A stretch of DNA of 64,000 bases from Shigella phage CM8. The notes under the pieces are model-generated. The model was not told where the DNA came from. It saw only the letters and a program-made list of their open reading frames with translations, and ran no database searches. Where the stretch lies: the sequence record MK962750; one strand, written 5' to 3'. The translations under genes and the position numbers were made by a program. Shown here in pieces: positions 3,723 through 5,591 of this stretch; positions within the stretch are counted from its first letter, which is position 1, and each line of letters opens with the position of its first letter.

Positions 3723-3798
3723 TGGTCGAGGCAGTAGGGATCGAACCTACGACCTAGGACTTAGAAGGTCCTTGCTCTTCCTTCTGAGCTATGCCCCG
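3723..3798 (-). tRNA. tRNA-Arg (anticodon UCU)
   Basis: 76 nt folded by hand: 7-bp acceptor stem CGGGGCA/UGCCUCG, anticodon arm AGGAC-CUUCUAA-GUCCU, T-arm GUAGG-UUCGAUC-CCUAC, encoded CCA. Confidence 0.88.
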
Positions 3799-3802
3799 TA
3801 AT

Positions 3803-3900
3803 TGGGGTGACCGATGGGAGTCGAACCACCCGAGTCGCAATGACAATGGATTTACAGTCCACACCGCTACCTCTACGGGATAACTCCCCTTAATTCTTAA
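3803..3900 (-). ncRNA. unassigned stable-RNA candidate between tRNA-Ile and tRNA-Arg (tRNA-like, not a canonical cloverleaf)
   Basis: About 100 nt with no ORF, GGGGAG 5' end, TTCGA T-loop-like motif and CCCCA 3' end, but I could not fold a canonical T-stem or acceptor stem. T4 carries two stable RNAs of unknown function in its tRNA region (recalled). Confidence 0.3.
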
Positions 3901-3902
3901 TT

Positions 3903-3977
3903 TGGTGGCCCTGGGTGGAATTGAACCACCATCTGGCGATTATGAGTCGCTTGCTTGAACCTTCCAGCTACAGGGCC
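3903..3977 (-). tRNA. tRNA with anticodon CAU (Ile by analogy to T4, or Met)
   Basis: 75 nt: acceptor GGCCCUG/CAGGGCC, anticodon loop CUCAUAA, T-arm GGUGG-UUCAAUU-CCACC, encoded CCA. Confidence 0.8.
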
Positions 3978-3978
3978 T

Positions 3979-4054
3979 TGGTGCTGATTGACGGAATCGA
4001 ACCGCCGACCTTCTCATTACAAGTGAGTTGCTCTACCTACTGAGCTAAATCAGC
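3979..4054 (-). tRNA. tRNA-Thr (anticodon UGU)
   Basis: 76 nt: acceptor GCUGAUU/AAUCAGC, D-arm GCUC-AGUAGGUA-GAGC, anticodon loop CUUGUAA, T-arm GGCGG-UUCGAUU-CCGUC, CCA encoded. Confidence 0.9.
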
Positions 4055-4059
4055 AAAAC

Positions 4060-4149
4060 TGGCGGAGGCGATAGGATTTGAACCTATGAGTCGCCGGAGC
4101 GACTGCCGGTTTTCAAGACCGGTGCATTAAACCACTCTGCCACGCCTCC
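4060..4149 (-). tRNA. tRNA-Ser (anticodon UGA), long variable arm
   Basis: 90 nt: acceptor GGAGGCG/CGCCUCC, anticodon arm CCGGU-CUUGAAA-ACCGG, long variable arm, T-arm AUAGG-UUCAAAU-CCUAU, CCA encoded. Confidence 0.9.
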
Positions 4150-4155
4150 AAATAT

Positions 4156-4806
4156 TTATATATTGTTAATTTGATTTAGAATTCTTTTTGCTTGAGTATG
4201 ACTTACGCCAATATGCTTAGCATATTTAGACAATTCGCCACGTTTAGAAAAATCATATAATTTAGAAATTTCTATTCTTCTTTTTCTTTCATCCGCAGAA
4301 ACTTTTGCTTCGTTTGCTTTTGCTATTTTACGTTTAGCTTCTTGAGAATGAGTTTTACCAGCAAAGCCATTCTTCATTAATCCATTTGAAGACCATCCTT
4401 TTAATTTTCCGTTAGAATGTGCCTTTTTAACACCCAATGAAATTAATTCGCGTTGCTGATCTGTCATAGGATAATTATTTATATGATCCCATCCACCTTC
4501 ACCTCCAAGTTTTAAATTATACACATCTGGTCTATTTAAAAACTCTTCTGTGACAATATTTTTCTCGGCTTCAAGCATAGATTCTTTATCGTCAAAATAC
4601 TCTAATATTTCTTTAGAAAAATTTTCTATACCATATTTATCTTGGGCTCTTTTTAATAATTTACCAGAACCCATATATCCATCATCTAAATTTTCGGTAG
4701 AATGCACACCAATATAAATTTTATTATTAATTTTATTTGTTATTTTATAAAGATAAAAATGCATATCAGTCCCTAATAAAGAACTGAGCGTCTCACGACG
4801 AGTCAT
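4156..4806 (-). CDS. segB: GIY-YIG homing endonuclease (SegB-like) inside the tRNA cluster
   Basis: FYLYKITNKINNKIYIGV...YMGSGK is a GIY-YIG motif; 216 aa; sits between tRNA-Gly and tRNA-Ser, as recalled for T4 segB. Confidence 0.75.
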   Translation of the reverse strand: MTRRETLSSLLGTDMHFYLYKITNKINNKIYIGVHSTENLDDGYMGSGKLLKRAQDKYGIENFSKEILEYFDDKESMLEAEKNIVTEEFLNRPDVYNLKLGGEGGWDHINNYPMTDQQRELISLGVKKAHSNGKLKGWSSNGLMKNGFAGKTHSQEAKRKIAKANEAKVSADERKRRIEISKLYDFSKRGELSKYAKHIGVSHTQAKRILNQINNI

Positions 4807-4810
4807 AAAT

Positions 4811-4884
4811 TGGAGCGGATAATGAGAATCGAACTCACATCATCAGATTGGAAGTCTGAGGTAATACCATTATACGATATCCGC
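4811..4884 (-). tRNA. tRNA-Gly (anticodon UCC)
   Basis: 74 nt: acceptor GCGGAUA/UAUCCGC, anticodon arm UCAGA-CUUCCAA-UCUGA, T-loop UUCGAUU, CCA encoded. Coordinates anchored on the overlapping plus ORF 4810. Confidence 0.88.
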
Positions 4885-4889
4885 AAATT

Positions 4890-4976
4890 TGGTGCGAGAA
4901 GTGGGACTCGAACCCACAAGGAAATCATTCCGCAGCATTTTAAGTGCTGTGCCTTTACCAATTTGACCATTCTCGC
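4890..4976 (-). tRNA. tRNA-Leu (anticodon UAA), long variable arm
   Basis: 87 nt: acceptor GCGAGAA/UUCUCGC, anticodon arm CAGCA-CUUAAAA-UGCUG, T-arm GUGGG-UUCGAGU-CCCAC, CCA encoded. Confidence 0.88.
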
Positions 4977-4982
4977 GCTATA

Positions 4983-5591
4983 TTATTTATTACGTGAAAA
5001 AGACTGTTCTATCAATTCTGGACACTTTCGTTCTATCCATTTTCTAGCTTTTTGTGGGCTTATACCTATTATTTTAGCAGCTTTACTAACCCATCCAAAT
5101 TTAGAATAATCGATTTTAACTAATTCTTCGTAAATTTCATCAGTTAAAATCTTTTCATTAATATTTACCAGTAAATGATATAATTTATTATCATTAGCAA
5201 TTTTAATGAATCTTTTATAGTTTCCGCCTTTACTTAAACCTAATGAAGTAATTGCAGATGATATAGTAGCCGAATTTAATAGTGCGTTTAAAATTTCTTC
5301 ATCACTAACATTATAACGCTTTTTATTATTTTTAATATTTTTACCAGCAAAAGTATCAGTTTGCGAATGGCAGTTTGGACATAATAATCTTAAATTTGAT
5401 TTAAGATGATTTTTGTTATTTCCATCAATATGGTCTAATTGCAGAACAATATGCTTATTTTGCCATTTTGAAATTTTACAAATTGCACACTCATATGGAA
5501 AAATATTTTCTTTTATTATTTTGTCTTTCAGCTTTCCTGTACTAAAATTTGGATGTTTTCCTTCAAAAATTTCAGCTAATTTAGTATCCAT
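4983..5591 (-). CDS. HNH homing endonuclease
   Basis: LQLDHIDGNNKNHLKSNLRLLCPNCHSQ is an HNH motif; ORF track start is TTG, first ATG is residue 9; directly upstream of tRNA-Leu. Confidence 0.75.
   Translation of the reverse strand: MDTKLAEIFEGKHPNFSTGKLKDKIIKENIFPYECAICKISKWQNKHIVLQLDHIDGNNKNHLKSNLRLLCPNCHSQTDTFAGKNIKNNKKRYNVSDEEILNALLNSATISSAITSLGLSKGGNYKRFIKIANDNKLYHLLVNINEKILTDEIYEELVKIDYSKFGWVSKAAKIIGISPQKARKWIERKCPELIEQSFSRNK

Follow-up and report, generated by a model that had tools for sequence, protein, structure and literature searches.

Putative homing endonuclease genes and a Tyr/His hybrid pseudo-tRNA in the reduced tRNA operon of Shigella phage CM8

The 64,000-nucleotide stretch of Shigella phage CM8 analysed here (record MK962750; hereafter the window) very probably contains a tRNA operon of Tequatrovirus (T4-like coliphages) that is both eroded and mosaic, three independent lesions having left six working tRNAs. 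In the proposed course of events, an HNH homing-endonuclease gene related to T5 hegA/F-TflIV would have replaced tRNA-Gln, a GIY-YIG gene designated Seg' would have replaced tRNA-Pro, and a deletion between two identical 11-nt T-loop boxes would have fused tRNA-Tyr with tRNA-His and removed tRNA-Asn. The anatomy of the operon is given in Table 1; the breakpoints and homologies were read from alignments with sequenced relatives, among which each allele segregates independently.

Table 1. Features of the CM8 tRNA operon in order of transcription
Feature	Position	Strand	Basis and remarks
Leader hairpin upstream of the tRNA operon	5613..5638	-	Fold: 11-bp stem, -18.4 kcal/mol, z=-1.9
tRNA-Gln stub, nt 1-7 (TGGGAAT)	5598..5604	-	Alignment; precedes the HNH start codon
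Putative HNH endonuclease gene, free-standing; product 202 aa, start ATG at 5591	4983..5591	-	Upstream of tRNA-Leu, in the tRNA-Gln slot
tRNA-Leu(UAA)	4890-4976	-	ARAGORN, Rfam; 100% identical to the gene of relatives
tRNA-Gly(UCC)	4811-4884	-	ARAGORN, Rfam, comparison with relatives
Seg', free-standing GIY-YIG endonuclease gene	4156..4806	-	Between tRNA-Gly and tRNA-Ser, in the tRNA-Pro slot
9-bp hairpin burying the probable Shine-Dalgarno (AGGGA) of Seg'	4766..4787	-	Fold, z=-2.0
tRNA-Ser(UGA)	4060-4149	-	ARAGORN, Rfam, comparison with relatives
tRNA-Thr(UGU)	3979-4054	-	ARAGORN, Rfam, comparison with relatives
tRNA-Ile2, anticodon CAU, lysidine type	3903-3977	-	ARAGORN, Rfam; ARAGORN label Met
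Tyr/His hybrid, putative pseudo-tRNA	3803..3889	-	Alignment, breakpoints; inside the gap 3799-3902
tRNA-Arg(UCU)	3723-3798	-	ARAGORN, Rfam, comparison with relatives
orf116 (phrog_3355), accessory ORF between tRNA-Arg and rnaD	3354..3704	-	
rnaD (species 2 stable RNA) homologue	3240..3357, approximate	-	Alignment to annotated T4 rnaD, about 98% identity
rnaC (species 1 stable RNA) homologue	3095..3233, approximate	-	Alignment to annotated T4 rnaC
Intrinsic-terminator-like hairpin	3021..3044	-	10-bp stem, 7 GC pairs, then T run

The window belongs to Tequatrovirus, with T4_ev240 as the nearest genome (96.3% identity), and its gene order is that of the T-even operon, in which the tRNAs, followed distally by rnaD and rnaC, lie between e.8 and the trna.2-4, ipI, and 57B genes. 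ARAGORN and the Rfam model RF00005 at its gathering threshold concordantly detected six tRNAs, all on the minus strand, and these were the same set (Leu, Gly, Ser, Thr, CAU, and Arg) at the same coordinates as implied by the original prediction, which had been drawn from the sequence alone. Sub-threshold Rfam matches (Plastid-ycf2, sX4, and snoRNAs) were dismissed as tRNA or antisense-tRNA look-alikes. The tRNA with the CAU anticodon had been left as Ile or Met, of which only Ile stood: its top E. coli match is a gene annotated as tRNA-Ile (81.6% identity), and its Ozark counterpart is identical in sequence and annotated Ile2-CAT, thus sequence comparison identifies it as the lysidine-type Ile2. 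Neither tRNA-Gln nor tRNA-Pro was found in the 64-kb window by either program, as predicted, and the T4 annotation bore out that T4 has eight tRNAs including these two. However, T4 was the wrong baseline. Tequatrovirus relatives hold all their tRNAs in one cluster at the same locus, and their pan-set comprises 11 slots (Gln, Leu, Gly, Pro, Ser, Thr, Ile2, Tyr, Asn, His, and Arg) followed by rnaD and rnaC. Since this clade pan-set, not the eight genes of T4, is the right reference, the window, by gene content, is without five of the clade tRNAs, not two. Six intact tRNAs represent the smallest set among the 11 architectures examined, the others having 7-10.

The leader hairpin, which precedes tRNA-Gln in T4, IME339, and KIT03, lies in a flank conserved in all relatives. 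Distally, orf116 shows presence/absence polymorphism (it is absent from T4, Ozark, Ec_O157kw, and T4_ev240), and the terminator-like hairpin probably ends the operon.

The prediction of an HNH gene upstream of tRNA-Leu was supported by a full-length match of its product to phrog_14736 'HNH endonuclease' (E=6e-124). A DHIDGNNKNH...N...CPNCH motif is visible in the translation, and the score against Pfam HNH PF01844 was 17.3 bits (cut-off 21.4). Homology of the flank with T4, IME339, and KIT03 extends as far as nt 7 of tRNA-Gln, where it stops, and the identical HNH/tRNA-Gln junction occurs in PBM-1. As read from these alignments, the HNH gene took the place of everything in tRNA-Gln from nt 8 onwards, and the persistence of the 7-nt stub sets the direction of the change from tRNA to endonuclease gene. 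This stub was the sole clear remnant; those suspected at 4150-4160 and 4976-4983 were not recovered (941/2000 and 1430/2000 shuffles, respectively). By tblastn, the HNH protein was found at an identity of at least 95% in about 62 phage records, and the gene is 100% identical at the nucleotide level to the Ozark and BP32 copies; no relatives of the protein were found in IMG/VR. The tblastn match to T5 hegA covered 84% of the query (34.7% identity, E=5e-15). Similar to the CM8 gene, T5 hegA/F-TflIV belongs to the HNH family and sits inside a phage tRNA gene cluster, directly after tRNA-Ser and tRNA-Ile2, but the phage family and the flanking tRNAs are different, the identity is modest, and the CM8 gene takes the place of tRNA-Gln. 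According to Akulenko et al. (2004, as cited in PMC2330249), the HNH endonucleases F-TflI, II, and IV belong to the tRNA gene region of T5.

Seg', likewise located between tRNA-Gly and tRNA-Ser as predicted, is a long ORF of 216 aa with a probable start at ATG 4764, which gives the 202-aa product annotated in PBM-1 and Ec_O157kw. The GIY-YIG domain is present (Pfam PF01541, 26.8 bits, cut-off 22.6; phrog_314, E=1.5e-55), NUMOD3 scored 20.1 bits (cut-off 20.4), and a C-terminal HTH-like motif was recognized by alignment. The gene had been described as SegB-like, which proved apt for its N-terminal part: in BLASTP, only residues 15-131 aligned with T4 SegB (117 aa, 83% identity, with identical sequence over about residues 21-108), whereas the C-terminal about 100 aa showed no similarity to it. 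The C-terminal half is homologous to the phrog_16521 ORFs of the Thr slot (E=1e-14), and T4 SegB has no phrog_16521 match. Judged by these alignments, Seg' is the catalytic domain of T4 SegB fused to a different, putative NUMOD3 plus helix-turn-helix DNA-binding half. It was rejected as a T4 segB orthologue because the homology is not full-length, the putative DNA-binding half being unrelated, and because T4 segB lies between Ile and Arg. Since its C-terminal about 100 aa are unrelated, Seg' probably has a target specificity other than that of SegB. The only alignment between the HNH protein and Seg' was a 24-aa HTH-like motif (E=2e-4), a weak hint that they may have a DNA-binding module in common; the BLASTP comparison of the HNH protein with the phrog_16521 ORF was not significant.

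Like Seg', the segB genes of T4 (PMC2330249) and T6 (PMC13096335) are free-standing GIY-YIG genes within a T-even tRNA operon. The catalytic N-domain, a candidate NUMOD3-like motif, the RBS-hairpin arrangement, and the presence/absence polymorphism are shared, whereas segB occupies the slot between Ile and Arg or between Tyr and Arg, and Seg' the one between Gly and Ser in place of Pro. The replacement of tRNA-Pro was clean: one breakpoint falls in the Gly-Pro spacer, the other at the 5' end of tRNA-Ser. A stretch of the Seg' leader (ACTC...GCTCAGTT, around 4778-4800) was considered as a tRNA-Pro remnant and rejected, as 604/5000 shuffles aligned locally to tRNA-Pro with an equal score; GCTCAGTT is part of the RBS hairpin. 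Hairpins that sequester the RBS have been described for homing endonuclease genes of T4 (PMC2988022); the one here resembles them and may be regulatory. A TATAAATA box at 4153-4160 was considered as a late promoter for tRNA-Ser, but this is doubtful because the box is too near the 5' end of the tRNA for a processable precursor.

The original prediction had missed the Tyr/His hybrid, which fills most of the 104-bp gap before tRNA-Arg. Its 5' 73 nt are those of tRNA-Tyr(GUA) and its 3' 25 nt those of tRNA-His, the latter forming a 29-nt suffix together with the 4-nt spacer to tRNA-Arg; the Tyr prefix and the His suffix are each 100% identical to Ozark. The fusion point is the 11-nt T-box (GGTTCGACTCC) that Tyr and His, and no other pair of tRNAs in the cluster, have in common. 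Most of tRNA-His was lost in the 269-bp deletion, together with the 3' end of tRNA-Tyr, tRNA-Asn, and a 114-bp spacer. The same junction occurs in IME339, in a cluster without endonuclease genes, and the two hybrids, which may or may not share one origin, differ by one SNP in the Tyr part and in the His tail, with orf116 flanks that are only 91% identical. It is hardly credible that the junction was formed by the collapse of two tRNA genes at a repeat during assembly: although it lies within a repeated sequence and its exact form had zero matches in IMG/VR and metagenome contigs, the 11-nt repeat is far shorter than assembler k-mer sizes, IME339 was sequenced independently, and the flanks are perfectly colinear.

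The hybrid keeps the D arm, the anticodon arm (GUA), and the long variable arm, and ARAGORN called it a tRNA-Tyr, though only at thresholds of 90% or lower and not at the default or at 95%. These features, and its maintenance in two phages, could suggest that the hybrid RNA is functional, whether as a working tRNA-Tyr of a suppressor-like or decoy kind or as a stable tRNA-like species akin to rnaC and rnaD. Such a function is nevertheless very unlikely, given that only 3/7 pairs of the acceptor stem and 3/5 of the T stem can form, the cloverleaf energy is +9.6 kcal/mol (-17.5 for the intact Tyr), the RF00005 score of 22.7 bits is below the gathering score of 29, and the 3' tail of the IME339 copy has changed further, which is consistent with drift. 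The hybrid is thus best described as a predicted non-foldable pseudo-tRNA that looks non-functional.

The 11 architectures were surveyed in the annotated phage collection, on which the analysis rested because the tRNA-Leu pattern matched only 3 IMG/VR loci; they differ in what occupies the Gln, Pro, Thr, and Tyr-Asn-His slots. In T2L, RB1, RB3 (PMC2330249), KIT03, Ozark, PBM-1, Ec_O157kw, and IME339, the same operon lies between the same flanking genes (e.8 ... trna.2-ipI), and its tRNA genes are 100% identical. The Pro and Gln alleles were each counted in 448 records, the HNH allele in about 62, and Seg' in about 54, the latter by its C-domain at an identity of at least 95% and with identical flanking tRNAs. 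Those records carry copies of the HNH and Seg' alleles that are 99-100% identical, and the hybrid junction is shared with IME339; these findings do not support the suggestion that the remodelling is ongoing in CM8. While orf116 and Seg' are 100% KIT03-like, the HNH gene is 100% Ozark/BP32-like. HNH and Seg' already occur together in PBM-1 and Ec_O157kw, but HNH, Seg', and the hybrid are together in no other surveyed genome. Every allele is known from other phages (the hybrid from IME339 only), the combination alone being new; the window resembles a recombinant mix of alleles that already existed elsewhere, which CM8 may have acquired through recombination between relatives.

A small ancestral tRNA set, to which relatives with 8-11 tRNAs added genes and in which endonuclease genes entered empty intergenic DNA, would agree with the wide variation of tRNA content across T4-like phages and with the lack of statistical support for a tRNA-Pro remnant in the Seg' leader. 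The sequences largely refute it, since 7 nt of tRNA-Gln still stand in register upstream of the HNH gene, and the chimeric hybrid joins two tRNA genes: because each of its parts is 100% identical to the intact Ozark gene, it can be derived only from intact Tyr and His genes. The Gln and Pro alleles are also about 8 times commoner than the endonuclease alleles, and we give the ancestral small set next to no credence compared with loss from a larger one.

The T-even tRNA locus is a documented battleground of homing endonucleases (PMC2330249, PMC13096335), and for T4 SegB homing was demonstrated with about 100% inheritance in crosses (PMC2330249). Seg' and the HNH gene may have spread similarly, by cutting the endonuclease-free allele in or near the replaced tRNA gene during co-infection, after which the endonuclease genes would have been copied in via recombinational repair. 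Endonuclease-driven remodelling, as originally suggested, fits the location of both genes in the Gln and Pro slots and the 7-nt Gln stub; Tyr, Asn, and His, however, were lost by a T-box-to-T-box deletion, not to an inserted gene. This deletion may have occurred by recombination or single-strand annealing of the two T-boxes. T4 SegB recognises the TpsiC-box DNA of tRNA genes and has its preferred site in the tRNA-Asn of T2L (PMC2330249), to which the Ozark tRNA-Asn is identical. Because the deletion spans this site, an endonuclease-triggered loss of Tyr, Asn, and His is plausible, if unproven, and we tentatively consider, at less than even odds, that a SegB-type double-strand break at the tRNA-Asn site, between the T-boxes, may have preceded it. 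The published T6 SegB motif, GTTCSAWTY, matches the T-box of Asn and not that of Tyr/His (GTTCGACTC).

The same product would also be possible without an endonuclease, by unequal recombination or replication slippage on the 11-nt repeat. That the deletion was spontaneous and the endonuclease genes were bystanders for this lesion seems to us a nearly balanced question. A perfect 11-nt direct repeat is present at both ends of the deleted 269 bp, the IME339 hybrid has no endonuclease gene in its cluster, and the published SegB motif has no match in the T-box of Tyr/His. Moreover, McClain and Foss are reported to have described, in Cell in 1984, laboratory T4 stocks with deletions of the tRNA region and hybrid tRNA genes that arose when homologous tRNA segments recombined. 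However, T4 encodes SegB, therefore the classical laboratory deletions did not arise in an endonuclease-free background. In experiments, SegB preferred a site in tRNA-Asn (PMC2330249), which falls in the lost interval and is identical in the parental type. T6 SegB breaks and uvsX/uvsY recombination at microhomology have been shown to rearrange this very locus (PMC13096335), and the endonuclease of a co-infecting phage can act in trans.

In the T6 SegB tandem amplification (PMC13096335), as in CM8, the junction lies in a short sequence common to two tRNA-cluster elements. The same is reported for the laboratory T4 hybrids; the locus is the same in all three cases and the recombination machinery would be the same. 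The CM8 hybrid differs in being a natural allele found in two phages, in having arisen by deletion and not by amplification as in T6, and in its product, which looks non-functional; it joins Tyr and His, both of which T4 lacks. An extended form of the break-induced reading, which we regard as rather unlikely, is that the hybrid is a repair scar, left when the flanking T-boxes of Tyr and His annealed and so closed a SegB-type break in tRNA-Asn; the outcome would have been a circulating allele devoid of the preferred site at the expense of three tRNAs, and the phrog_16521 ORFs, together with Seg' and the HNH protein, would form a family of tRNA-gene-targeting nucleases that exchange a DNA-binding module.

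In annotations, the hybrid is best marked as a pseudogene, Seg' named neither segB nor segD, and the CAU tRNA given as Ile2. The locus also offers material for tests: a SegB paralogue in another slot whose DNA-binding domain has been swapped, an HNH gene similar to T5 hegA in the place of Gln, and a natural hybrid allele that may resist SegB, carried by a phage with a predicted sensitivity to Septu. It leaves current concepts unchanged, being a well-preserved example of a known phenomenon whose value lies in experimental material and annotation. Phage tRNA genes are now seen as counter-defence cargo (for instance, phage tRNA-Tyr rescues T6 from Septu; PMC13096335), and the T-even tRNA cluster is a target of homing endonucleases (PMC2330249). 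CM8 gives a compact, natural illustration of what this relationship costs: five of the 11 slots are lost, two apparently via replacement by endonuclease genes and three via a T-box deletion spanning the preferred SegB site. If the repair-scar reading were true, the locus would be the record of a conflict with three parties, namely selfish nucleases, the tRNA cargo of the phage, and a host immunity that cleaves tRNAs, and the price of losing the SegB site would include the tRNA-Tyr that protects T-even phages from Septu.

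The six tRNA genes of the cluster were the only ones detected by ARAGORN in the whole 64-kb window, all on the minus strand, and the Rfam tRNA model at its gathering threshold returned the identical six and no others. Both tools confirmed the order of the original prediction (Leu, Gly, ORF, Ser, Thr, CAU, and Arg in the direction of transcription), and the expected endonuclease ORFs were found as well, a GIY-YIG type between Gly and Ser (Pfam, phrog_314) and an HNH type upstream of Leu (phrog_14736). As neither tRNA-Gln nor tRNA-Pro appeared in the scan of the whole window, their predicted absence stands. 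Judged from its sequence matches, the CAU tRNA is of the Ile2 (lysidine) type: its top E. coli match carries a tRNA-Ile annotation and the identical gene of phage Ozark is annotated as Ile2-CAT. For Gln, Pro, Tyr, Asn, and His codons the phage presumably relies on host tRNAs.

Features of the tRNA operon and the related ORFs of T2 and T4_ev240 (window coordinates unless a locus excerpt, L012 or L013, is named)
Feature	Position	Strand	Evidence or context
Terminator-like hairpin, strong	3021-3044		after rnaD/rnaC homologues
orf116	3354-3704	-	phrog_3355; accessory ORF between tRNA-Arg and rnaD
tRNA-Arg(UCU)	3723-3798	-	ARAGORN, Rfam
Hybrid pseudo-tRNA	3889 to 3803	-	Tyr/His fusion
tRNA CAU	3903-3977	-	ARAGORN, Rfam
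tRNA-Thr(UGU)	3979-4054	-	ARAGORN, Rfam
tRNA-Ser(UGA)	4060-4149	-	ARAGORN, Rfam
Seg′ ORF	4156-4806	-	GIY-YIG, Pfam 26.8 bits (cut-off 22.6); phrog_314
tRNA-Gly(UCC)	4811-4884	-	ARAGORN, Rfam
tRNA-Leu(UAA)	4890-4976	-	ARAGORN, Rfam
HNH endonuclease ORF	4983-5591 (ATG at 5591)	-	phrog_14736, E=6e-124, full length
orf171	5691-6206	-	phrog_2290; between trna.2 and operon leader
tRNA-Thr-replacing ORF of T2 (T2_137)	L012 2809-3210		phrog_16521, full length
tRNA-Thr-replacing ORF of T4_ev240	L013 2131-2613		phrog_16521, full length

The region is of Tequatrovirus (T4-like coliphage) type, with megablast matches to over 1000 phage records. Over 25 kb (window 1-25000; INPHARED collection), T4_ev240 was the nearest genome, with only 96.3% identity and with 93% coverage split over 8 pieces; the window therefore derives from a Tequatrovirus lineage that the collection does not sample, with several further indels. 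Ten annotated relatives including T4 were compared, giving eleven architectures together with the window; tRNAs were rescanned with ARAGORN in PBM-1, KIT03, Ec_O157kw, T4, and IME339, and taken from the records' own annotations in Ozark, JEP6, BP32, T2, and T4_ev240.

Architecture of the tRNA cluster in the relatives (transcription order; square brackets mark ORFs of endonuclease type)
T4	Gln Leu Gly Pro Ser Thr Ile [SegB] Arg rnaD rnaC
IME339	Gln Leu Gly Pro Ser Thr Ile (Tyr/His hybrid) Arg
KIT03	Gln Leu Gly [Seg′] Ser Thr Ile Tyr Asn His Arg
Ozark	[HNH] Leu Gly Pro Ser Thr Ile Tyr Asn His Arg
PBM-1	[HNH] Leu Gly [Seg′] Ser Thr Ile Tyr Asn His Arg
Ec_O157kw	[HNH] Leu Gly [Seg′] Ser Thr Ile Tyr Asn Arg
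JEP6	[HNH] Leu Gly Pro Ser Thr Ile [T4-type SegB] Arg
BP32	[HNH] Leu Gly Pro Ser Thr Ile Tyr [T4-type SegB] Arg
T2	Gln Leu Gly Pro Ser [133-aa ORF] Ile Tyr Asn Arg
T4_ev240	[HNH] Leu Gly Pro Ser [160-aa ORF] Ile Tyr Asn Arg

T4, against which tRNA loss had originally been gauged, proved to be the wrong yardstick; the pan-set of the eleven architectures comprises 11 tRNA slots, endonuclease-type ORFs are the alternative occupants of at least four (Gln, Pro, Thr, Tyr-Asn-His), and the intact tRNA set is smallest in the window (6 vs. 7-10 elsewhere). Among the surveyed relatives, the HNH gene and Seg′, the GIY-YIG gene, occur together only in PBM-1 and Ec_O157kw, neither of which has the Tyr/His hybrid, a pseudo-tRNA preceding tRNA-Arg. 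The locus is a mosaic: orf116 and Seg′ match KIT03 with 100% identity, the HNH gene matches Ozark and BP32, and the tRNAs match many relatives, likewise at 100%. Both endonuclease genes are minority alleles (~62 records for HNH and ~54 for Seg′ vs. 448 for tRNA-Gln and 448 for tRNA-Pro); at ≥95% identity, the HNH protein was found in 62 phage records and the C-terminal domain of Seg′ in 54.

The alignment with T4, IME339, and KIT03 showed that conservation of the leader upstream of the HNH gene runs through nucleotides 1-7 of tRNA-Gln (TGGGAAT, 5598-5604); there the homology breaks off and the HNH start codon follows, and it resumes two bases ahead of tRNA-Leu. This stub shows which gene came first: the endonuclease gene took the place of a tRNA gene. 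The junction in PBM-1 is identical, and the map position of the HNH gene was the same in all six phages checked (PBM-1, Ec_O157kw, Ozark, JEP6, BP32, and T4_ev240). The nearest outside relative of the protein is T5 HegA/F-TflIV (34.7% identity over 84% of the protein), whose gene likewise lies within a tRNA cluster, directly after tRNA-Ser and tRNA-Ile2; the location of the F-Tfl endonuclease ORFs in the T5 tRNA gene cluster has been described (PMC2330249).

tRNA-Pro was cleanly substituted by Seg′, as the alignment with T4 and IME339 revealed, one breakpoint falling within the Gly-Pro spacer and the other at the 5′-end of tRNA-Ser. The designation of this gene as SegB-like holds for its nuclease head but not for its position or its C-terminal half: T4 segB occupies another slot, between Ile and Arg (T4 annotation; table in PMC2988022), and BLASTP aligned only residues 15-131 with T4 SegB (83% identity, with an essentially identical catalytic core), while no similarity was detected in the C-terminal ~100 residues. 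The C-terminal half contains a NUMOD3-like motif and is homologous (BLASTP E=1e-14) to phrog_16521, to which the ORFs in the Thr slot of T2 and T4_ev240 belong, whereas T4 SegB gave no phrog_16521 match. Since only the N-terminal domain matches SegB and the tail matches phrog_16521, Seg′ is a domain-swapped paralogue, in which the SegB nuclease head is joined to another DNA-binding tail. The target choice of GIY-YIG enzymes is set by the tail, thus the specificity of Seg′ probably differs from that of T4 SegB, whose domain organization was suggested to be I-TevI-like by the authors of PMC2330249. Labels of Seg′ vary among GenBank genomes (segB, segD, or “truncated SegB-like”).

The likely start codon of Seg′ is the ATG at 4764, which the PBM-1 and Ec_O157kw annotations also use. 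Ahead of it, a 9-bp hairpin (4766-4787) buries an AGGGA Shine–Dalgarno sequence, similarly to the RBS-sequestering hairpins of T4 homing endonuclease genes (PMC2988022), and may have a regulatory role. A candidate tRNA-Pro remnant in this leader was rejected, as its alignment was no better than chance. At the other end, a perfect T4 late-promoter box, TATAAATA (4153-4160, minus strand), lies 4 nt upstream of tRNA-Ser and overlaps the stop codon of Seg′; such boxes are enriched across the window (27 found vs. 10 expected).

A 24-aa helix-turn-helix-like motif, D[FY]SK.G..SK.AK.IG[VI]S...A[KR] (BLASTP E=2e-4), is common to the C-terminal parts of the otherwise unrelated HNH and Seg′ proteins, and both matched phrog_16521, a weak hint that a DNA-binding module may have been exchanged between the nucleases of the cluster. 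The N-terminal part of the Thr-slot ORFs (…GHEYCMCRFGDKGPYSLNNIYCATNNQN…) possibly resembles a degenerate HNH-type motif, and these ORFs may represent a fourth nuclease, or nuclease relic, of the cluster.

The 104-bp “spacer” between the CAU and Arg tRNAs, overlooked in the original prediction, aligned at its 5′-end with tRNA-Tyr and at its 3′-end with tRNA-His of the relatives. Exact comparison with Ozark identified a 73-nt prefix identical to tRNA-Tyr(GUA) and a 29-nt suffix identical to tRNA-His plus spacer, the two overlapping by 11 nt, GGTTCGACTCC, which is the T-loop box. Among the tRNAs of the cluster, this exact T-box is common only to Tyr and His. Relative to Ozark, 269 bp are missing: Tyr lost its 3′-end and His three quarters of its length, and Asn is gone entirely along with a 114-bp spacer; the junction left behind is GGGTGGTTCGACTCCCATCGG. 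The hybrid retains 3/7 pairs of the acceptor stem and 3/5 of the T stem, scored 22.7 bits with Rfam (gathering score 29), was detected by ARAGORN only at thresholds lowered to 90%, and gave +9.6 kcal/mol when forced into the Tyr cloverleaf vs. −17.5 for intact Tyr; the best interpretation is a pseudogene. The deleted Asn-His spacer (2703-2816 of the Ozark locus excerpt, also present in KIT03 and PBM-1) holds a promoter-like TTGAC…TATAGG, and is jointly absent with tRNA-His from T2, T4_ev240, and Ec_O157kw.

The same junction is carried by IME339 and was found nowhere else in the phage collection, IMG/VR, and metagenome contigs. A single Tyr SNP and the His tail distinguish the two hybrids, and the downstream orf116 is only 91% identical. 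The IME339 copy terminates in GGTCCCCCCCA in place of GGTCACCCCA (2530-2540 of its locus excerpt), which could be either pseudogene drift or a homopolymer sequencing error.

T4 SegB recognizes a 27-bp site with an 11-bp core formed by the TψC-box DNA of tRNA genes and cuts nearly all tRNA genes of the cluster, with a strong preference for the tRNA-Asn site of T2L, RB1, and RB3; in T4 × T2L crosses, segB was inherited at 99.6% and the T2L Met-Tyr-Asn-Arg segment was excluded (PMC2330249). The cleavage site of T6 SegB, RAWTSGAAC, is the T-box on the opposite strand, and, together with uvsX and uvsY, this enzyme amplifies tRNA-Tyr and segB in tandem at microhomologies, saving T6 from Septu, which cleaves tRNA-Tyr (PMC13096335). 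The tRNA-Asn of Ozark type is identical to the T2 gene with the preferred SegB site and its T-box fits the published motif. Seg′ and the HNH gene may have spread by a SegB-like homing logic, each eliminating a tRNA gene in which, or next to which, its target probably lies, and recombination among co-infecting relatives could have brought the three lesions together in the window phage.

The Tyr/His deletion might have arisen by a double-strand break between Tyr and His, healed by annealing of the identical flanking T-boxes, an origin we propose only tentatively; such a deletion would be the reciprocal counterpart of the T6 amplification. Spontaneous unequal recombination on the 11-nt repeat is expected to yield the same product, and IME339, having the hybrid in a cluster without any endonuclease gene and no seg gene, speaks for it, but the nuclease could possibly be supplied in trans by a co-infecting phage. 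If a break was involved, the hybrid could be the repair scar of a SegB attack, by which the preferred cleavage site was removed at the cost of anti-defence tRNAs, although we consider this rather doubtful. The proposed endonuclease-driven remodelling is supported in part, by the replacement of Gln and Pro by HNH and Seg′; for the Tyr/His deletion such an origin is only tentative.

The genes for tRNA-Ile and tRNA-Arg beside the T4-type segB of T4 (2674-2748 and 3461-3534 of its locus excerpt) and JEP6 are strongly divergent from the window alleles, with no blastn match or ~78% identity. Thus, the T4-type SegB cassette moves with its own isoacceptor genes, which is consistent with co-conversion of the flanks during homing. 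The accessory orf116 is absent from T4, Ozark, Ec_O157kw, and T4_ev240, and, in contrast to its identity with KIT03, is only 88-91% identical to IME339, PBM-1, JEP6, BP32, and T2, consequently it is an independently segregating cassette of the operon, probably one of the two unnamed T2L ORFs in PMC2330249. It is followed by homologues of T4 rnaD and rnaC (~98% identity). orf171 was found elsewhere only in KIT03 and T2 (~90% identity) among the surveyed genomes and in one IMG/VR contig (95%).

It is already published that homing endonucleases reside in the tRNA cluster of T-even phages, that they target the T-box, and that the tRNA content of these phages varies, and hybrid tRNA genes reportedly arose by T4 tRNA-gene recombination in laboratory deletion mutants (McClain & Foss, 1984). 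The literature examined does not appear to describe Seg′ in the Pro slot as a SegB paralogue with a swapped domain, a Gln-slot HNH gene of hegA type accompanied by a 7-nt stub of tRNA-Gln, or a Tyr/His hybrid allele circulating in nature, though all three are present, if mis-annotated, in GenBank genomes. The locus is a real, well-preserved, and conceptually ordinary case of the erosion of a phage tRNA operon by homing endonucleases and recombination. Considering the T6 tRNA-Tyr result (PMC13096335), the window phage would be expected to be more sensitive to Septu-type cleavage of tRNA-Tyr than its Ozark-type relatives.
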